Positions 8,645 through 47,913 of a stretch of DNA of 48,686 bases are shown here, one piece after another. The translations under genes were made by a program, and so were the position numbers. The notes below the pieces were generated by a model. The model saw nothing but the letters and a program-made list of their open reading frames with translations. It had not been told where the DNA came from and ran no database searches. The DNA lies in IMG/VR virus record IMGVR_UViG_643348546_000001; one strand, given 5' to 3'. The DNA is from a virus (Duplodnaviria > Heunggongvirae > Uroviricota > Caudoviricetes). The stretch's first letter is position 1, and each line of letters starts with the position of its first letter.

Positions 8645-9157
8645 TTATTTCAAAGAAAAATTATGACTAGCGTATCTTGGAAGAAATTCATATAGTGTTA
8701 ATGTCTTAACGCCGTGAGAAGCAGCCGCATCCGGGATCATTATTCTTTTTTTAGGTTTGCCACCGGATGGTTTCTCATGGGTAATAATAGTATATCCATG
8801 TGTCATCGCATGGGCTATTAAAAAAGCATCTGCTTTTTCATGGCTTGCAAAATCAAACTTTGCCTTTTCGGTAACATCTAATTTAGTTGACCAATTTATT
8901 AACTTTGCATAATTTTCTATTGAACTATGCTCATCTTCGAAGAATGATGATGGTAACTCTTCTTTAATCCATTTACACAATGGATCATCTTTTGCACATA
9001 GTTCTTTTTTTACAGCATTAATGCTATAAATCAGACCATTAATGTGTAAAGCGAGAAGAAAATCCCAAAATATTTTGCAATAATTGAAGTTATATGCAAA
9101 GTTTTTTGCCTCTATGAAGACATTACTATCAATTAAGAATTTTCCATTATGAATCAT
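8645..9157 (-). CDS. PIN-like nuclease-fold protein (DUF4411-like), predicted toxin/effector
   Basis: 170-aa ORF; N-terminal FLIDSNVFIE and later acidic/Thr positions (ADAFLIAHAMTHGYTIITHEK) fit a PIN-like pattern; overlaps the upstream gene's stop by 4 nt; very AT-rich. Confidence 0.6.
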   Translation of the reverse strand: MIHNGKFLIDSNVFIEAKNFAYNFNYCKIFWDFLLALHINGLIYSINAVKKELCAKDDPLCKWIKEELPSSFFEDEHSSIENYAKLINWSTKLDVTEKAKFDFASHEKADAFLIAHAMTHGYTIITHEKPSGGKPKKRIMIPDAAASHGVKTLTLYEFLPRYASHNFSLK

Positions 9158-10293
9158 AGAGATTCTCGTTTTTTATAAAATTCAACAACTGTATCTGCTT
9201 TTACATTTAGCAGTACGCCTGCTTCCCTTAATGGTAATTGTTGAGACATTGCTTTGGAAATTATTATATTCGTAAGTTTTGGACTGTTACGAACAGGTAA
9301 TGTGTTAAAGAAAGAACCACCATTAGATTCTTTTTTGGGCTTATTGTAAGCTTGATCTTTAATTATCTCCAAAGTGTTTCTTTCTATCAAATCTAATTGT
9401 AACGCTTTGATTGCACAAGCGAAATCACTAACCTTAAATAACTTAGAAACCTCTTTTACTCGATAATAATTATTATCGCTGGATGCATTAAGCCAGAAAG
9501 ATTTGAAGAGATTATCAGGCATTAAGATTTCAGCAGCAACTTTATTACAAAAAGATTCTATGTTTTTTTCTGTGTCCCACCCAGAGACTCCATCGACTCC
9601 AAGCCAAAGATGAGCCACCTCATGAAATAATGTAAATACCTGCGCAGATAACGCGTCCGAGCTATTTACAAAAATGATCGGAGCAACGCTATCAGATATA
9701 CAGAAACCACGAAACTCTCGCGTGTCAAGTTTTCTTTTATTATTATTACCCACAACACCATTCTTGAAAACTAATACGCCAGTGTCTTCTATTAATTTTG
9801 CCACTTTAGAAAAATAGCTCTCAAAAGTGACATTTTTTATCTCTTTTTGTATATCAAAATGTATTGTGTTTGCTATGTCTGTAGCAACAACCTTATAATT
9901 TAATTTTCTATTAAATTTAAATTTACCAATAAAATCGAGTGGATCATCATTACCATTTTCTCTTAAATAGTCTTTGTACCACTCAAGTTTATATTCTATA
10001 TCATAGTAAACATCAAAAAAATCTTTTCCTAACTCACGGCTATTTATAGCTTGCCTTAAGTCAGGGATCTTGGGTTTGGCTGGAGTTGGTGGCGTTTCAA
10101 GAAATAAAAAACCGAAAGGGATTCCTCCAATTTTTGCCAGTTTTTCTGCTGCGGATTTACTTACCACTCCGTTAAGAAATTTATTAATCTTTTTGGGCAT
10201 GACTTGGTCAGCAAGAGTTTCGATAGAAACTCCTTGAGAATTTGCTATCCAATCAATCATCTTCCTAGACAATTGAAATTCAACCGCTGCCAT
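9154..10293 (-). CDS. HTH-domain / ImmA-IrrE-family (COG2856-like) zinc metallopeptidase protein
   Basis: 379-aa ORF; HExxH motif (FHEVAHLWLG) in the middle, HTH-like N-terminal segment; AGGTGA RBS 4 nt before the ATG; very AT-rich. Confidence 0.65.
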   Translation of the reverse strand: MAAVEFQLSRKMIDWIANSQGVSIETLADQVMPKKINKFLNGVVSKSAAEKLAKIGGIPFGFLFLETPPTPAKPKIPDLRQAINSRELGKDFFDVYYDIEYKLEWYKDYLRENGNDDPLDFIGKFKFNRKLNYKVVATDIANTIHFDIQKEIKNVTFESYFSKVAKLIEDTGVLVFKNGVVGNNNKRKLDTREFRGFCISDSVAPIIFVNSSDALSAQVFTLFHEVAHLWLGVDGVSGWDTEKNIESFCNKVAAEILMPDNLFKSFWLNASSDNNYYRVKEVSKLFKVSDFACAIKALQLDLIERNTLEIIKDQAYNKPKKESNGGSFFNTLPVRNSPKLTNIIISKAMSQQLPLREAGVLLNVKADTVVEFYKKRESL

Positions 10294-14315: not shown

Positions 14316-15068
14316 ATGGATCCTAAATTACTGTATGCCACGTTTAAACGAAATGACGCACCAGCTTGGCGCTGCCCGAACTGTATGAATGAAACACTGG
14401 AGATTGTCGCTGATAGTTTTGTAGAAACTGATTCAAGCGCAACAACTCAGTTTAGAGATGAAGTATGGTTTGATGAGGAAATGTCGGGAGGAGTATTCAG
14501 TTGCGTGCTGCGCTGTACCCGCCAAGCCTGCCAGGAGAAGGTTGCTTTGTCTGGGCAGGTTGTTGCTGTAGAATGCTTCAATGACGAAATGACGGAGCGT
14601 TGGTATGTTTCTGGTTTCCGTCCTAAGTATTTCTATCCACCACTTCCTCTATTCCTGTTTCCTGAAAAGTGCCCTGAAGATATAGCTGATCTCTTGGCGG
14701 AAGTATCAGCTCTGATCCCCTCGCACCCAGCTTCAGCGGTGAACACCATGAGAACCATACTGGAGATGATGCTTGATAGTCTTGATGTACCAAGAGAGAA
14801 AACAGTTAAAGGCAAGATAATACGTCTTTCTACGCATGAAAGAATCACAAATTATTCAGATAAACTGGGACCAAATAAAGATGCATTCATGGCGTTAAAG
14901 TGGTTGGGGAATCACGGCAGTCATGGAGGGATTAAAGTCACAAGGTCCTCTATTAATGATGCCTGCATTCTCATTGGTCATTTGATTGACTTCTTATTCT
15001 TAGAAAGCCCGGATGTAACTATTCATATTGAACGGATAAACAACGTGTATGCACCCAAAAAGGAGTAA
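14316..15068 (+). CDS. Hypothetical protein with N-terminal zinc-ribbon-like CxxC motifs (cargo gene)
   Basis: 250-aa ORF; GGAG RBS before the ATG at 14316; WRCPNCMNE...SCVLRCTRQACQEK cysteine cluster; lies in an insertion between ren and the nin block; inverted repeat TTAACG-N10-CGTTAA just upstream. Confidence 0.7.
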   Translation: MDPKLLYATFKRNDAPAWRCPNCMNETLEIVADSFVETDSSATTQFRDEVWFDEEMSGGVFSCVLRCTRQACQEKVALSGQVVAVECFNDEMTERWYVSGFRPKYFYPPLPLFLFPEKCPEDIADLLAEVSALIPSHPASAVNTMRTILEMMLDSLDVPREKTVKGKIIRLSTHERITNYSDKLGPNKDAFMALKWLGNHGSHGGIKVTRSSINDACILIGHLIDFLFLESPDVTIHIERINNVYAPKKE

Positions 15069-15079
15069 AACGTAACGCC

Positions 15080-15328
15080 ATGTCGAAGCGGAATATTGCC
15101 GCTAAAACACAAGAAGAGCGCGAGAAGGTTAACGTTGACCTTGCTGTCTCCTGAGTTACCTACAAAGAGCGCCTTAATATACCGGTTATTGCCGAAGCGG
15201 TGATGCGTGAGCAGCCTGAGCATTTGCGGGACTATTTTTTGGAGCGGCCACGACATTACCGCGAGCAGAGCATCGCGCTGCCCAAGGCATCCGCTCCTCG
15301 ACATCTTAAGCAGGAAGGTGAAAAATGA
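15080..15328 (+). pseudogene. Small ORF (83 codons) interrupted by one in-frame TGA; its terminal TGA overlaps the ATG of the downstream gene
   Basis: [81 protein letters not shown]; internal TGA at 15152-15154; ATGA overlap with the next gene at 15325-15328. Confidence 0.45.
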
Positions 15329-15807
15329 TAAGTGCAGAAGGACTGCAGCGGTTACTTAATTTATCGGAGCCTCCATCTGATGAACTGATTGATGTTTATC
15401 TTCAATTCTGCATGATTTTTCCTAGGGTCGAGCAAAGTTTTTTTGGTGGCTTTGCTAAGGGGGAAGACAGTTTAAATTATGCGCGAACGTTACTTGACGC
15501 CGGGATAAAGGTGCCCAACGAACTTTTTCACGATTTTAAGCAGAGATACATTTTGAATGGGGATGCGCAGGAAAGACTTGACGCCCTCTGTGTCGGTCGA
15601 GAGAGAGATAGGCGGGGAATAGTTAATGGACTTCAAAATGACGCAGCAACAGATCTAAACACCATGTCTACAGTATTAAAGATAGTTATAAGGATAAGAA
15701 ATAACCTTTTCCACGGAAATAAAGACGCTTATCTTTTTGTTGATTCTCAAGAGCAAGCGCAACTATTGAGGTGGTGCGTGAGATTTCTCCAAGGATTATT
15801 AAATTAA
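15325..15807 (+). CDS. Hypothetical protein with HEPN-like R-x4-H motif (candidate RNase effector)
   Basis: 160-aa ORF; C-terminal region carries [15 protein letters not shown] (R-N-x-x-x-H) as in HEPN-superfamily RNases; start overlaps the upstream small ORF stop. Confidence 0.6.
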
Positions 15808-17486: not shown

Positions 17487-17870
17487 ATGCGTGATATTCA
17501 GATGGTTCTTGAGCGTTGGGGAGCGTGGGCGGCTAATAATCATGAAGATGTGACCTGGTCGTCCATTGCCGCCGGTTTTAAGGGATTAATTACTTCAAAA
17601 GTAAAATCTCGCCCGCAATGTTGTGACGATGACGCTATGATCATTTGCGGGTGCATGGCCCGTCTGAAAAAGAACAACAGCGATTTGCACGATTTATTAG
17701 TAGATTATTATGTAGTCGGTATGACATTCATGTCACTGGCAGGTAAGCATTGCTGCTCTGATGGTTATATCGGGAAAAGGTTACAGAAGGCTGAGGGCAT
17801 AATTGAAGGGATGTTAATGGCATTAGATATCCGGTTAGAGATGGATATCGTTGTTAATAACTCTAATTAA
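17487..17870 (+). CDS. Q: Late-gene antiterminator Q (phage 82 / QuuD type)
   Basis: Start at the ATG at 17487; [26 protein letters not shown]... matches remembered DLP12 QuuD; cysteine-rich zinc-binding region. Confidence 0.9.
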
Positions 17871-18059
17871 TATGCCAATTGTTTACTAAAAATTATTAAA
17901 AATGGGGCGTTGAGACGCCCCCAAAAATAAAGGGTAATATATAACAGAAGGTTTATATAGTTAGAAGCAAGGTTGTGCTTCTAAAGGAAGTGGCTTGAGG
18001 GAGCCACTTATATGTTGGGGAGGCAATGCCTCCCGCAACATATCTTTTTCGTAATCAGA
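17871..18059 (+). promoter_or_regulatory. Late promoter / qut / tR' region with several hairpins
   Basis: Directly downstream of Q: hairpin GGGGCGT-TGAG-ACGCCCC (17903-17920), AGAAGCA..TGCTTCT, AGTGGCT..AGCCACT, and GGGAGGCA-A-TGCCTCCC (about 18020-18036) followed by a T-rich run; the first hairpin has a T-run on the minus strand and may also terminate the convergent porin gene. Confidence 0.5.
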
Positions 18060-19157
18060 TTAGAACTGGTAAACCAGACCTACAGCAACGATGTCATCAG
18101 TGCTTACACCGAGTGCTTTAGTGAAGTCATTTTTGTCAAGCAGGTTGATTTTGTAATCAACGAAAGTAGACATATTTTTGTTGAAGTAATAGGTTGCACC
18201 TACATCAACATATTTGACTAAGTCCTGATCGCCCCATACTCCAAGATCCTTACCTTTAGATTGCAGGTAAGCAACGGACGGACGCAGACCGAAATCGAAC
18301 TGATATTGTGCAACAGCTTCGAAGTTTTGGGCTTTATTAGCAACGAAGTGATCAGCAAATACAGTCATATTCTGGGTTTCAGAATAGGTAGTGGCCAGGT
18401 AAATGTTGTTAGCGTCATATTTCAGACCTGCGGCCCAAACTTCTGCATTTTTACCGGAAGCAAATACTTCAGGAAGAACTTTCCCTGCATTAACTTGAGT
18501 GTCGGTACGATCAGATTTTGCATAAGTTGCACCGATACCGAATCCTTCGTATTCATAGGTAGCAGAGAAACCGAAGCCATCACCGTTACCTTCGGTGTAG
18601 TTATCGAAATCGCTACGATCGTTTTTGCCTTGGTACTGAGCAGCAAAGTTCAGACCATCAACCAGGCCAAAGAAGTCGTTGTTACGATAGGTTGCAACAC
18701 CAGTGGTGCGACCAGTCATGAACACATCTGTTTGGGTCCAGGTATCGCCACCGAATTCTGGCAGAACGTCAGTCCACGCACCGATGTCGTATGCTACACC
18801 GTAGTTACGGCCGTAATCGATTGAGCCGTAGTCACCGAATTTCAGGCCTGCAAATGCAAGACGGGTTTTGTCTTTGGAGGAACCTTGAGATTCAGCGCGG
18901 TTGCCTTTGAATTCATATTCCCACTGACCGAAACCAGTCAGTTGATCGTTGATTTGGGTTTCACCTTTGAAGCCAAGACGGGCATAAGTAGTATCACCAT
19001 CATCTGCATCATTAGAGGAGAAGTAGTGCTTAGCATTAACTTTCCCGTACAGATCCAGCTTGTTACTGTCTTTATTATAAATTTCAGCTGCCTGAGCAGA
19101 CATCGCCATCAGTACTGATGCAGCTACAGCAGAAATTGCCACTGTTAATTTTTTCAT
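18060..19157 (-). CDS. nmpC: Outer-membrane general porin (OmpC/PhoE family; nmpC / phage Lc type)
   Basis: 365-aa ORF with signal peptide ([23 protein letters not shown]), AEIYNKD start of the mature protein, C-terminal aromatic VGLVYQF; lies between Q and the lysis genes on the opposite strand with an AT-rich promoter region 19158-19700. Confidence 0.92.
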
Positions 19158-19745
19158 CGTGAGCCCTTTTTTTTGAACTATTATTAAAAAATGATGTCAC
19201 TGCGCGATAAATATTCATCTAATCAATGTGATTATTTCAAGATGTAAGTTTTAGTTTCTCATTTAATTTGTGAAGTAGATCTCTATTTTTATCTGAACTT
19301 TTTCTATCGAAACCTATTTATGGCTCTTATTTGAACAAAAATAAACCTATTAGCTAATTTATATTAATGGCTGTTATTTATGGGGGTTCTATAATTCGGC
19401 AGTTTAATTTAAATCAACTAAAAATAACGTCTGAAATTATTTATTGGTTATTTGTTGAGGTTTTCTTATGTATTTGTGGTGGAGTTTTGAACACTCGGTA
19501 GCATTCTCATAAATATCATTCAGTGGTTTACGTACGTAAAAAATTGGTTATGCTGTTAAGAGTGGTTACTTCGTCACACAGCTTAAACCCGCCGTCGAGC
19601 TGGTTTTTCCATTTTTTGAGTCTCGATATTAGCTGATAACTCAATACCTGAGTTATTCACTGACTCCGAGTCTGTTACGTTTCTGCTTTTTTGCGATACG
19701 TTGTATTCCCTCAATTTACACCCGCTTTGTCTGCGAGGTGGGGTT

Positions 19746-19961
19746 ATGAAATCCATGGATAAGTTAACAACGGGTGTCGCCTATGGCACCTCAGCAGGTA
19801 GTGCCGGTTACTGGTTTTTACAGCTGCTCGATAAAGTCACGCCCTCACAGTGGGCAGCAATAGGTGTGCTGGGTAGCCTGGTATTTGGCCTGCTGACGTA
19901 CCTGACAAACCTTTATTTCAAGATTAAAGAAGATAAGCGCAAGGCTGCGAGAGGTGAATAA
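19746..19961 (+). CDS. S: Holin, phage 21 S (pinholin) type
   Basis: Start at the ATG at 19746 (MKSMDK...); matches remembered S21/EssD ([13 protein letters not shown]...[10 protein letters not shown]...[18 protein letters not shown]). Confidence 0.9.
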
Positions 19962-20458
19962 TGCCTCCATCATTACGAAAAGCCGTTGCTGCTGCTATTG
20001 GTGGCGGAGCAATTGCTATAGCATCAGTGTTAATCACTGGCCCAAGTGGTAACGATGGTCTGGAAGGTGTCAGCTACATACCATACAAAGATATTGTTGG
20101 TGTATGGACTGTATGTCACGGGCATACAGGAAAAGACATCATGCTCGGTAAAACGTATACCAAAGCAGAATGCAAAGCCCTCCTGAATAAAGACCTTGCC
20201 ACGGTCGCCAGACAAATTAACCCGTACATAAAAGTTGATATACCGGAAACAACGCGCGGCGCTCTTTACTTGTTCGTTTACAACGTGGGCGCTGGCAATT
20301 TCAGAACATCGACGCTTCTTCGCAAAATAAACCAGGGCGATATCAAAGGCGCATGTGATCAGCTACGTCGCTGGACATATGCTGGCGGTAAGCAATGGAA
20401 AGGTCTCATGACTCGTCGTGAGATTGAGCGTGAAATCTGTTTGTGGGGTCAGCAATGA
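19961..20458 (+). CDS. R: SAR endolysin (phage 21 R-type lysozyme with N-terminal signal-anchor-release segment)
   Basis: 165-aa ORF; Gly/Ala-rich weakly hydrophobic N-terminus ([20 protein letters not shown]) then a lysozyme domain; adjacent to the holin. Confidence 0.9.
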
Positions 20459-20916
20459 ACAGAGTAACCGCGATTATCTCCGCTCTGGTTATCTGCATCA
20501 TCGTTTGCCTGTCATGGGCTGTTAATCATTACCGTGATAACGCCATTACCTACAAAGCCCAGCGCGACAAAAATGCCAGAGAACTGAAGCTGGCGAACGC
20601 GGCAATTACTGACATGCAGATGCGTCAGCGTGATGTTGCTGCGCTCGATGCAAAATACACGAAGGAGTTAGCTGATGCGAAAGCTGAAAATGATGCTCTG
20701 CGTGATGATGTTGCCGCTGGTCGTCGTCGGTTGCACATCAAAGCAGTCTGTCAGTCAGTGCGTGAAGCCACCACCGCCTCCGGCGTGGATAATGCAGCCT
20801 CCCCCCGACTGGCAGACACCGCTGAACGGGATTATTTCACCCTCAGAGAGAGGCTGATCACTATGCAAAAACAACTGGAAGGAACCCAGAAGTATATTAA
20901 TGAGCAGTGCAGATAG
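20455..20916 (+). CDS. Rz: Spanin inner-membrane subunit Rz
   Basis: Start at the ATG at 20455 ([23 protein letters not shown]...); near-identical to lambda Rz. Confidence 0.92.
20675..20857 (+). CDS. Rz1: Spanin outer-membrane lipoprotein subunit Rz1 (embedded in Rz in the +1 frame)
   Basis: 60-aa ORF wholly inside Rz; lipobox LVVVGC and proline-rich stretch [15 protein letters not shown]; matches lambda Rz1. Confidence 0.9.
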
Positions 20917-20947: not shown

Positions 20948-21241
20948 TTATTGTGAGCAATACACACGCGCTTCCAGCGGAGTATAAATGCCTAAAGTAA
21001 TAAAACCGAGAAATCCATTTACGAATGTTTGCTGGGTTTCTGTTTTAACAACATTTTCTGCGCCGCCACAAATTTTGGCTGCATCAACAGTTTTCTCCTG
21101 TCCAATTCCCGAAACGAAGAAGTGATGGGTGATGGTTTCCTTTGGTGTTACTGCTGTCGGTTTGTTTCCAACAGTAAACGTCTGTTGAGCACATCCTGTA
21201 ATAAGCATTGCCAGAGCGGCAGAAAACAACATTTTTTTCAT
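20948..21241 (-). CDS. bor: Bor lipoprotein (serum-resistance, Iss family)
   Basis: Start at MKKMLF (21241); lipobox LITGC; near-identical to lambda Bor. Confidence 0.93.
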   Translation of the reverse strand: MKKMLFSAALAMLITGCAQQTFTVGNKPTAVTPKETITHHFFVSGIGQEKTVDAAKICGGAENVVKTETQQTFVNGFLGFITLGIYTPLEARVYCSQ

Positions 21242-21603
21242 CTTATTATCCTGCATTGTTAAAAACGGCAGAATCCTATGTGACAACAATTAAACGATAG
21301 TTAAATGGATTGATGAAAATTAAAACTATATAGGTGTACGCTCAGACTATTGGAGGAAGTTGGGGACACTCAGAATCCTGTGGAATGAAATAAACCGGTC
21401 TATCCGTCTATTACCCTTTTAGCTGCGCTGTATCGTCGCCGTATTCCCGCATTAACCATGACCGTAGCCCGACGGGGAATTCCTTCTGCGTGAGTGTGCG
21501 GGAATAATCAAAAACGATGCACACCGGGTTTTACTGTGCTGACAGACGCAGGGTTACCCTCATAGTCGCTTTTCCGGTGCGATGGTGGAAGAAACCGGGA
21601 TGT

Positions 21604-41064: not shown

Positions 41065-41664
41065 ATGCGTAAACTTTATGCCGCCATTTTGTCCGCAGCC
41101 ATCTGTCTGGCCGTATCCGGTGCGCCTGCATGGGCGTCTGAACATCAGTCCACGCTGAGCGCGGGCTATCTTCGTGCCCGTACGAACGCTCCCGGCAGCG
41201 ATAATCTGAACGGGATTAACGTGAAATACCGTTATGAGTTTACGGACACGCTGGGGCTGATTACGTCATTCAGTTATGCCAACGCTGAAGATGAGCAAAA
41301 AACGCATTACAGCGATACCCGCTGGCATGAGGATTCCGTGCGTAACCGCTGGTTCAGCGTGATGGCGGGACCGTCTGTGCGCGTGAATGAATGGTTCAGC
41401 GCGTATGCGATGGCGGGTGTGGCTTACAGCCGTGTGTCGACTTTCTCCGGGGATTATCTCCGCGTAACTGACAACAAGGGGAAAACGCATGATGTGCTGA
41501 CCGGAAGTGATGACGGTCACCACAGCAACACGTCTCTGGCGTGGGGAGCTGGCGTGCAGTTTAACCCGACCGAATCGGTGGCCATTGATGTCGCTTATGA
41601 AGGCTCCGGCAGTGGTGACTGGCGCACTGACGGTTTCATCGTGGGTGTCGGTTATAAATTCTGA
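41065..41664 (+). CDS. lom: Outer-membrane protein Lom (Ail/Lom family)
   Basis: 199-aa ORF with signal peptide, near-identical to lambda Lom. Confidence 0.95.
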   Translation: MRKLYAAILSAAICLAVSGAPAWASEHQSTLSAGYLRARTNAPGSDNLNGINVKYRYEFTDTLGLITSFSYANAEDEQKTHYSDTRWHEDSVRNRWFSVMAGPSVRVNEWFSAYAMAGVAYSRVSTFSGDYLRVTDNKGKTHDVLTGSDDGHHSNTSLAWGAGVQFNPTESVAIDVAYEGSGSGDWRTDGFIVGVGYKF

Positions 41665-46585: not shown

Positions 46586-47169
46586 CTTTATCAATGACTT
46601 ATCTCCCGACTTCCCGCCTTGCTTTTCCTAAACAGAACAATCGTAGAATATTCTTGAAGGGTTAGATCGTCACTGTTTTCTGTTCGATACTGTGACATTC
46701 AGCACTTGATTCGCTATGGATCTGACAGGAAGGTTTTGAGCGAAAATTTGCAGTTATTCAGTCGTTTTCTTATCGGTCACCATTATTCTTTTAGACATTG
46801 ATCCTACAAAGCTGCCGCAAAGTTGGTGGTGGGAACTGAAGTTGCGTAGAGAAGGGGTCAATACCCGGAGGCAAACATGGGCTGGCAAAAGTGTAGCGGT
46901 ATTAGGCGCAGCTATTTAGCCTAGTTATGTTTTATGAAAACTTGATATCATATAAGTGTCTTACTTATTGGCTGTAAATAAGTTTTTCCTAAGGAATTGT
47001 TTCTTGAGTATCATTTGTAACTGTAACGGAATTTATAATCCTTTGCTTTATTGTTACGGTATTTTTTATTACACCCTATTTTTTATGTGGTTTTTTATAC
47101 TGACGTTTGGCAAAGTGAACTTTATATGCATATACTTCATCCTGGTTTCAGTTAAGTTGGGTGGATGAT

Positions 47170-47913
47170 ATGGCAACTACATGTTCAGTTATATTGATTT
47201 TGGAGTCCTTTGATGTTTATTTCGGAAAAGAGAGTGTGTTTCTGGAGAGAGGTTCATCTGTACTTGTCGACTCTAGCTCTAGAGATTTTTTCCTGACATA
47301 TCCTGAAAGAGTGATAGTGGCGGATTTTGGCGCTGAGTTTATTAGTCGCTATTTGAAAGCTAATAACTTAAGGGATATTTCTGATTGTAGGGAATATCCA
47401 TCTTATTTAAAAATAAACTTTGCTGACTTCAGTTTAATTAAAGGATTAATTAGTTGGGCTAATCACTGTGCTGAATACATAGAAATTTTTGATGAGTCTA
47501 TTGCTTTTACATGTCTCTCTGCATTTTCTTCTGAAAAACAATTTGGAGTATTTCTGTTTGAATGTTTGAAAAGCACAGAGGCTAAAGTTAAAACGATTAT
47601 TCATACGGATTTATCTGCACCATGGCGTCTTAAGGATATATCATCAAGATTATATCTCAGCGAAAGTTTACTAAAGAGGAAATTGAAAGAAGAGGGGGTA
47701 TCATTCAGTAAGATCATACTTGATGAAAGGATGCAAATGGCTGAATATTTACTCAGCACTCGTTGTTATCCTATTAGTAAAGTAGCTAAGGTCTGTGGTT
47801 ATGCCAGTGTCTCATACTTTACTTATGTATTTAGACGTTATTTTGGTGTTTCTCCAAGTCAATACTCTCAGAGGAGTTCAGAAAGTAAAATTCTTACTCA
47901 CCAGGGAATCTGA
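47170..47913 (+). CDS. AraC/XylS-family transcriptional regulator (AppY/EnvY-like; AT-rich, horizontally acquired)
   Basis: ORF 47161-47913, ATG at 47170 preferred (GGTGGA RBS); C-terminal double HTH typical of AraC family (SKVAKVCGYASVSYFTYVFRRYFGVSPSQY); AT-rich codon usage. Confidence 0.85.
   Translation: MATTCSVILILESFDVYFGKESVFLERGSSVLVDSSSRDFFLTYPERVIVADFGAEFISRYLKANNLRDISDCREYPSYLKINFADFSLIKGLISWANHCAEYIEIFDESIAFTCLSAFSSEKQFGVFLFECLKSTEAKVKTIIHTDLSAPWRLKDISSRLYLSESLLKRKLKEEGVSFSKIILDERMQMAEYLLSTRCYPISKVAKVCGYASVSYFTYVFRRYFGVSPSQYSQRSSESKILTHQGI

Follow-up and report, generated by a model that had tools for sequence, protein, structure and literature searches.

The porin gene and its prophage setting

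The window analyzed here (i.e., the whole stretch of DNA, 48.7 kb with an overall GC content of 50%) is a complete lambdoid prophage in integrated gene order. The integrase gene (positions 1-1071) comes first and is followed by early genes, Q, the lysis genes, the terminase, head and tail genes, J, lom, and the side tail fibre gene; the whole is a mosaic of sequenced coliphages (e.g., PhiR70_1, ev099, and Turner). The Q antiterminator gene (17487..17870, plus strand) encodes a 127-aa protein of the QuuD type (Pfam PF06530; E = 4e-53). Profile matches place genes for an S21-type holin, a SAR endolysin, and Rz/Rz1 at 19746-20916 on the same strand, with bor also present in this lysis-side neighbourhood after Rz/Rz1. 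The holin is a pinholin of the S21/EssD type (19746..19961, plus strand; PF04971, E = 3.5e-35), the translation of which opens with MKSMDK and contains a dual start (Met1 at 19746 and Met4 at 19755); an S71 antiholin and an S68 holin are annotated likewise in the phage 434B record. An Rfam scan of the whole window returned a single match, an IS3-family frameshift element at 2335-2452.

Between Q and the holin gene, on the minus strand, lies a porin gene (18060..19157) that starts with ATG and runs for 365 codons. An earlier note on this DNA had described a complete OmpC/PhoE-family porin of 365 aa with a signal peptide at this position, intact and free of IS elements, and both points are borne out: re-examination revealed no internal stop or frameshift, and the gene contains no IS element. 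Residues 29-365 align with positions 1-337 of the 337-position Pfam profile Porin_1 (PF00267; E = 1e-156), and solved OmpC, OmpK36, PhoE, and OmpF chains align with residues 24-365 (E about 1e-135), a starting point that fits the 23-residue signal peptide (residues 1-23) annotated in the record of phage PA-2. The protein ends in YQF and, with its full-length 16-strand domain, N-terminal signal peptide, and C-terminal aromatic residue, belongs to the general porin family. In NCBIfam, it passes the OmpC-subfamily cut-off (526.5 bits, cut-off 484) and falls below the equivalog cut-offs for PhoE (500 versus 599 bits) and OmpF (477 versus 583 bits). The full-length structural alignments and the OmpC-subfamily membership place it in the same fold family as chromosomal OmpC, OmpF, and PhoE; unlike these chromosomal general porins, it is phage-borne and accompanied by its own 3' untranslated region (3'UTR) regulator. 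Many annotation pipelines label this gene as Salmonella OmpD.

The full 2816-bp PA-2 lc record (GenBank J02580, which we take to be the sequence of Blasband, Marcotte, and Schnaitman, 1986) is 97.1% identical at the DNA level to window positions 17833-20648, and lc has the same position and orientation as the window gene. This likeness spans the 3'UTR, both annotated CRP sites, the late-promoter block, the holin gene, and the endolysin gene; outside the lc region, the window prophage is a different mosaic from PA-2. The two porins are identical at 363 of 365 residues, the substitutions being R99H and V154F. The module is also that of the DLP12 (qsr') prophage of Escherichia coli K-12, which comprises quuD, ipeX, nmpC, essD, rrrD, rzpD, and borD, but in K-12 an IS5 copy after codon 346 interrupts nmpC; no such interruption occurs in the window gene. 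When IS5 and the 4-bp duplication are removed, K-12 NmpC is a 365-aa protein that also matches the window porin at 363 of 365 residues. DLP12 is defective, whereas the window contains a full-length prophage with head and tail genes.

The suggestion in the earlier note that a porin of the PA-2/DLP12 type occupies this site was correct (99.5% identity to both). The window gene is lc/nmpC, an already known gene, as indicated by its near-identity to PA-2 Lc and K-12 NmpC, the founding members, and by its location in a lambdoid prophage, where it is flanked by Q and the lysis genes and oriented against them. The exact window protein is named "outer membrane porin protein LC" in public sources and occurs on at least 1000 contigs, and the 2.6-kb Q-porin-holin module (coverage of at least 80%) is present in 2394 of 5426 complete E. 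coli genomes (44%) and in 36 phage records. As a lysogenic-conversion porin, the gene has been textbook material since the 1970s-80s. The gene itself thus adds nothing new, and the useful outcome of the analysis is a corrected anatomy of the locus.

The IpeX region and the interval between Q and the porin gene

The porin stop codon is followed on the minus strand by a 3'UTR of ~162 nt (17898..18059) with four hairpins and a terminator, which is the equivalent of the IpeX RNA. Region 17860-18065 is identical to the K-12 DLP12 ipeX locus at 205 of 206 positions, the sequence of the gap between Q and the porin gene is 99.5% identical to that of PA-2, and the match to K-12/PA-2 ipeX runs from the porin stop codon to the rho-independent terminator. 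The minus-strand RNA folds with -63.4 kcal/mol (z = -9.4). The terminator of the porin/IpeX transcript (17898..17921, minus strand) consists of a stem (17921 to 17904) followed by one A and T5 (17903 to 17898); the terminator scan recorded seven pairs here, six of them G-C, ahead of the T-run. It is one-directional, the stem being followed by A's on the plus strand, and across eight divergent copies the stem is invariant and three of the four loop positions vary.

A review derives IpeX (167 nt in that source) from the porin transcript and credits it with the control of OmpC (PMC12197685), and other papers count it among the ompC-targeting sRNAs. By its sequence, window region 17898-18059 corresponds to IpeX, and a lowering of OmpC and OmpF would be expected from the literature. 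Predicted pairing between IpeX and the ompC leader was no better than that of shuffled controls (z = -0.7), and the pairing with the ompF leader (z = -2.9) runs through an implausibly fragmented duplex. In the original IpeX paper, the lc 3'UTR is reported to be required for OmpC inhibition in PA-2 lysogens, to lower OmpF as well, and to do so independently of Hfq. With such a 3'UTR present, the protein would not be the sole agent of a porin swap. The earlier note had missed this element, the reported agent of OmpC down-regulation.

The conservation of the IpeX fold is weakly supported by the pattern of substitutions, which favour unpaired positions (6 of 92 paired versus 14 of 82 unpaired; P = 0.03). 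One A-U to G-U change is compatible only with a minus-strand RNA and one U to C change only with a plus-strand RNA, and no compensatory changes were seen in the hairpins of the compared copies because these are at least 93% identical. No Rfam model matched near the porin gene or IpeX in the whole-window scan, a missing match that is no evidence against IpeX. The lambdoid prophage sRNA svsR was considered and set aside as unrelated to the porin locus; it sits at the cI end and targets lamB.

On the other side of the gap, residues 1-120 of the QuuD-type Q protein share 78% identity with the 144-aa Q of Sakai Sp5, after which the two proteins diverge; the window Q also distantly matches the Q21 structures 6JNX/6P18. 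The DNA homology to Stx-phage Q stops at 17819, and the last ~6 codons of Q and its stop codon come from inserted DNA. The 189-bp gap bears no similarity to the post-Q regions of related Q genes. Its sequence was found only in 36 phage records, all of which carry the porin gene, whereas Q-like DNA was found in 360; this restricted co-occurrence assigns the gap to the porin cassette rather than to the Q module. On the plus strand, the gap folds with a z of -5.6 and contains a hairpin followed by CTTTTTCG (18010..18051), which is the complement of IpeX hairpin 1. This structure might act as a terminator for transcripts that run past Q without N modification/antitermination.

The porin upstream region and the probable late promoter

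The earlier note had assigned a 540-bp AT-rich upstream region to the porin gene. The AT-richness stands (32% GC over 19158-19700), but only ~370 bp (19158-19525, 28% GC) constitutes the true porin upstream region, and the last ~175 bp of this spacer consists of the late promoter and the holin leader. Within the regulatory region, the proximal CRP site (19266-19286; annotated at 1363-1383 in the PA-2 record) is located 119 nt upstream of the porin ATG and contains TGTGA-N6-TCTCT at 19269-19284, in agreement with the PA-2 annotation. Both CRP sites annotated in PA-2 are exactly conserved in the window, and a window-wide scan with the CRP consensus gave 22 matches against 22.9 expected, which is the chance level. 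Reading of the hexamers suggests a candidate sigma-70 promoter for the porin gene on the minus strand, namely, TTGAAA (19240-19235) and GAATAT (19216-19211) with an 18-nt spacer, relative to which the CRP site is centred at -72.5. This candidate scored below the threshold of the promoter scan, which found no strong consensus promoter in this region. In K-12, an RpoS-holoenzyme SELEX peak lies between insH and essD, at a resolution too coarse to distinguish the porin promoter from the late promoter.

Homologues of the porin gene are expressed. In strain LF82, transcription of the NmpC porin gene of the prophage Perceval, a relative of the window prophage, exceeds the local prophage background 10-fold. 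In CFT073, strong nmpC expression at 37 C is seen in RNA and protein alike, and at this temperature nmpC goes up and ompC goes down. In K-12, nmpC mRNA falls 60-fold at pH 4.4 along with tnaA, mglB, lamB, and treB, and a decrease shared with catabolite-sensitive genes is in keeping with the conserved CRP site of the PA-2 record. These data are consistent with catabolite and temperature control of the homologues. A functional pore in the outer membrane of lysogens is a prediction that the expression of homologues in LF82 and CFT073 supports indirectly, and the proposal that the gene is a candidate for lysogenic conversion is reasonable, although already established.

Homology to the Stx phages restarts beyond the porin upstream region, at 19526-19608 (76% identity over 83 nt), and the Stx-phage counterpart of this block straddles the Q stop codon. 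For Sakai, the start of the late promoter pR', mapped by dRNA-seq, and the 3' end of tR', mapped by Term-seq, lie 257 nt apart (Sy et al.; PMC7547250). The absolute coordinates in that paper are offset by 142 nt from the RefSeq version used here, and the assignment of the Sakai start therefore rests on spacing and promoter geometry: in the Sakai sequence L005, the T-run of the single strong terminator ends at 1203, which places the pR' start at 946, 7 nt past a TATCAT -10 hexamer with a TTTACG -35 hexamer at 16-nt spacing. In the window, the corresponding plus-strand block (19527..19561) includes -35 TTTACG (19527-19532), a 16-nt spacer, and -10 TATGCT (19549-19554), with a predicted start at ~19561. 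No other sequence in the window is homologous to a pR' that has been mapped by experiment for a related Q (78% aa identity), and the hexamers of the block occupy matching positions. Judged by this homology to a dRNA-seq-mapped promoter, the late promoter is probably located beyond the porin gene, just upstream of the holin gene, where we infer it to be active and Q dependent in the window phage. The statement in the earlier note that Q-dependent late transcripts "must" cross the porin gene in antisense is thus not supported, given a pR'-homologous block that lies beyond the porin cassette.

In SfII, PhiR55_1, and cdtI, the same block immediately precedes the late genes, and unrelated minus-strand genes lie between Q and the block (i.e., SfII_49/50, a hypothetical gene in PhiR55_1, and cdtI orf53/54). 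In an alignment of six phages, the -10 hexamer is followed by an invariant AAGAGTGGTTAC...CAC. The leader of the late transcript (19562..19745, plus strand) comprises an invariant AGTGGTTACTTCGTCACAC, a hairpin with T-runs, and then a structured holin ribosome-binding region, and the dual start of the holin (ATG at 19746 and ATG at 19755) is reached ~185 nt past the predicted transcription start. According to the six-phage alignment and the fold, the hairpin and T-runs at 19586-19617 represent a candidate tR'; they are conserved in all aligned relatives, with one stem mismatch in the window and PA-2, and the mapped 3' end of tR' in Sakai is further downstream, at +258. PA-2 carries the same GCTGG allele in this hairpin, and the idea that a G to T change at 19601 represents a leaky-terminator allele was dismissed because the plaque-forming PA-2 has the same base. 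The PA-2 record labels 19561-19581 as a (distal) CRP site, which overlaps the invariant start of the late transcript; its occurrence in phages lacking the porin gene makes it more likely to be part of the pR' function.

The comparison with the Stx phages (Sakai Sp5/Sp15, 144-aa Q) reveals both a shared and a divergent architecture. Their -35/-10 region is homologous to that of the window, and the initial transcribed AAGAGTGGTTAC and the early hairpin/T-run are alike. In the Stx phages, the pR' block overlaps the end of Q, and tRNAs and stx lie downstream and are transcribed late, whereas in the window Q and the block lie 1.7 kb apart, with minus-strand cargo between them. Homology stops at 19608, and the window lacks the 258-nt StxS unit together with the functional 3' part (74 nt) of this unit. 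A further arrangement occurs in Lambda_2E9, the Q gene of which is closer to quuD (87.5% identity at the nucleotide level), yet which lacks the pR' block; a promoter-like stretch and an StxS-like terminator come straight after its Q, followed by minus-strand blc. Cargo placed before pR' is thus not universal, and a related Q may adjoin a different late-promoter region.

A cassette model and its alternatives

The features described above lead us to consider it likely that window positions 17848-19525 form a self-contained, minus-strand conversion cassette ("moron") of ~1.7 kb located between Q and pR'. Relative to the Stx phages, the insertion junctions are at ~17847 and 19526. The segment has its own terminator and a candidate promoter, a GC content of 28-44% against 50%, and a position between two phage functions, and a homologue is expressed in a lysogen, as is characteristic of morons. 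In this model, the cassette would consist of an AT-rich regulatory region (CRP site and probable sigma-70 promoter), lc/nmpC, the ~162-nt IpeX 3'UTR, and the one-directional terminator, the end of which is about 25 nt away from the stop codon of Q. In the lysogen, it would be transcribed independently; the porin mRNA would yield the trimeric Lc/NmpC porin, and the 3'UTR RNA would lower OmpC post-transcriptionally (and, reportedly, OmpF). The predicted physiological outcome in the host is an exchange of the outer-membrane porin set. Late transcription would begin at about 19561, downstream of the cassette, and proceed away from it into the genes for holin, endolysin, and Rz, so that the cassette would be insulated from Q-dependent late transcripts and only early pR-derived transcripts running beyond Q could cross the porin gene in antisense. 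From the comparison of the Q genes, we conclude that the cassette probably replaces the ancestral C-terminal ~24 codons of Q.

Two other readings of the locus were weighed against this cassette model. In the first, pR' would directly adjoin Q, the arrangement of lambda, 21, and the Stx phages; late transcripts modified by Q would then traverse ipeX and the porin gene in antisense on their way to the holin gene and silence the porin in lytic growth. A location directly 3' of Q is the rule in most studied lambdoid phages, and in Lambda_2E9 a QuuD-like Q is apparently followed at once by a promoter and a terminator, and then by minus-strand blc. The gap in the window also contains a weak plus-strand motif, TTGAGA-19 nt-TAATAT, in addition to the hairpin and CTTTTTCG, but the promoter scan found no promoter on the plus strand of the gap. 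The gap is, moreover, unlike any post-Q region of related Q genes and restricted to records with the porin gene, and a Sakai-type pR' block, with its -35, -10, and invariant initial transcribed sequence, is present at 19527-19581. A late promoter directly after Q therefore seems to us very unlikely.

The alternative that the cassette is largely silent, with H-NS-type silencing of the 28%-GC upstream region and ordinarily little effect on the outer membrane, draws on the strong AT bias of this DNA, on the lack of a strong consensus porin promoter in the scan, and on the titles of cited papers, which call nmpC a "quiescent" porin gene in E. coli B. That label suggests that porin expression may vary with strain or condition. 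General silence is hard to reconcile with transcription of the Perceval gene 10-fold above background in LF82, with strong RNA and protein signals in CFT073 at 37 C, and with an nmpC mRNA in K-12 abundant enough to fall 60-fold at pH 4.4. The porin open reading frame is, in addition, intact in hundreds of genomes and 99.5% conserved across PA-2, K-12, and the window. We regard a largely silent cassette as unlikely, and the cassette model with expression in the lysogen as the preferred reading.

An extension of the cassette model is that the interval between Q and the cognate pR' is a recurrent slot for cargo, filled here by the porin-IpeX cassette, which replaced the last ~24 codons of an ancestral Q, and that this slot keeps late transcription away from cargo expressed in the lysogen, unlike the position of stx downstream of pR'. 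We put this forward only tentatively, as an idea that is somewhat more apt to fail than to hold. A search of the 5426 E. coli genomes for an "empty site," in which the 3' end of quuD is joined to the pR' block, found no place with at least 80% coverage of the chimeric query, and the best joined places had a small unrelated gene between both flanks. If the slot is indeed recurrent, the distal "CRP site" of the 1986 PA-2 annotation would be the invariant start of the late transcript, and the ~50-nt RNA from pR' to the hairpin might be constitutive in lysogens, like StxS in the Stx phages.

The receptor of PA-2 is OmpC, which is the logic behind superinfection exclusion by a porin swap. The J protein of phage 434 also targets OmpC, and the C-terminal receptor-binding domain of the window J protein shares 52% identity with its counterpart in 434 (OmpC) and 55% with that in lambda (LamB). 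At these levels of identity, a receptor call from J similarity was dropped. The same domain is 93-95% identical to J of the long-tailed Stx and PPompW phages, for which no receptor assignment was found. The J receptor domain is thus of another type, and the OmpC dependence of PA-2 is not transferable to the window phage.

For annotation, the corrected anatomy means that the porin gene should be marked together with the IpeX 3'UTR and the terminator and that the late promoter belongs in the interval separating the porin and holin genes, not beside Q. It also affects how prophage porin swaps are modelled (e.g., the phage and antibiotic susceptibility of lysogens) and decides which fragments are suitable for reporter fusions. 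The fragment 19158-19700, for example, would hold two divergent promoters.

The annotated distal CRP site and a putative antisense ORF of the porin locus

The sequence at window positions 19561-19581 exactly matches the distal "CRP binding site" of the 1986 record for the lc porin of phage PA-2. These positions coincide with the opening ~20 nt of the late transcript, which are invariant (AGTGGTTACTTCGTCACACAG), and AGTGGTTACTTCGTCACACAG was also found in phages that carry no porin (i.e., SfII, cdtI, PhiR55_1, and the Stx phages). Because porin-less phages share the sequence, 19561-19581 probably functions in pR'/Q loading or pausing and not in regulation of the porin. A putative 69-aa ORF (18012-18221, + strand) starts inside hairpin 1 of IpeX, the RNA of the porin 3' UTR, and runs antisense into the 3' end of the porin gene. 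The PA-2 record labels it "ORF1", and in 434B it is annotated as a hypothetical pseudogene. This ORF is probably not a gene.

Cargo genes and late-promoter candidates downstream of Q in other lambdoid phages

Unrelated minus-strand genes follow Q in SfII, cdtI, PhiR55_1, and Lambda_2E9. In the first three, Q and the pR' block flank the cargo, which comprises, respectively, genes for two unknown proteins (129-1743 of the extracted stretch L008), a DUF6731 protein and one unknown protein (12-1400 of L004), and an unknown 148-aa protein (1690-2136 of L009). The Lambda_2E9 cargo encodes the lipocalin Blc (3050-3574 of L007). The post-Q region of lambdoid phages appears to be a place where genes expressed in lysogens are repeatedly inserted.

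The Q gene of Lambda_2E9 is QuuD-like (87.5% nt identity), and the pR' block GTGGTTAC was not found in this phage. Directly 3' of Q (L007, 2894-3022) lie a promoter-like stretch and a terminator similar to the tR'/StxS 3' end of Sakai, StxS being the RNA of the Sakai pR'-tR' unit. A second hairpin with a T-run is located 80 nt 5' of the holin gene (~945-975 of L019, another Lambda_2E9 extract). Both the post-Q unit and the pre-holin hairpin are candidate pR'-tR' units.

Other cargo of the prophage

In addition to the porin, the prophage encodes a Bor lipoprotein (20948-21289, -) and a Lom/Ail outer-membrane protein (41065-41664, +), and it thus gives the lysogen at least three envelope proteins. 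Close to its right end it also encodes an AraC-family regulator (47161-47913, +), placed like appY of DLP12. The nin region includes two ORFs with no assigned role, one for a 250-aa DUF4145 protein (14316-15068, +) and one for a 160-aa protein (15325-15807, +) with no match in Pfam or PADLOC.

Two minus-strand genes adjoining the repressor gene (8645-10293) occupy the same position as rexAB of lambda. They encode a 379-aa protein with an M78/IrrE-type peptidase domain, for which PADLOC returned matches to CapP and RmrA, and a 170-aa DUF4411 (PIN-like) protein; the pair is likely a toxin-antitoxin or anti-phage defense module. An IS3-family insertion sequence (~1562-2900, -) lies immediately internal to the integrase end of the prophage. 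Its transposase gene (1562-2395, -) encodes rve and HTH_21 domains, and it carries a ribosomal frameshift element of the IS1222 type (2335-2452; Rfam RF00383, 156.6 bits).
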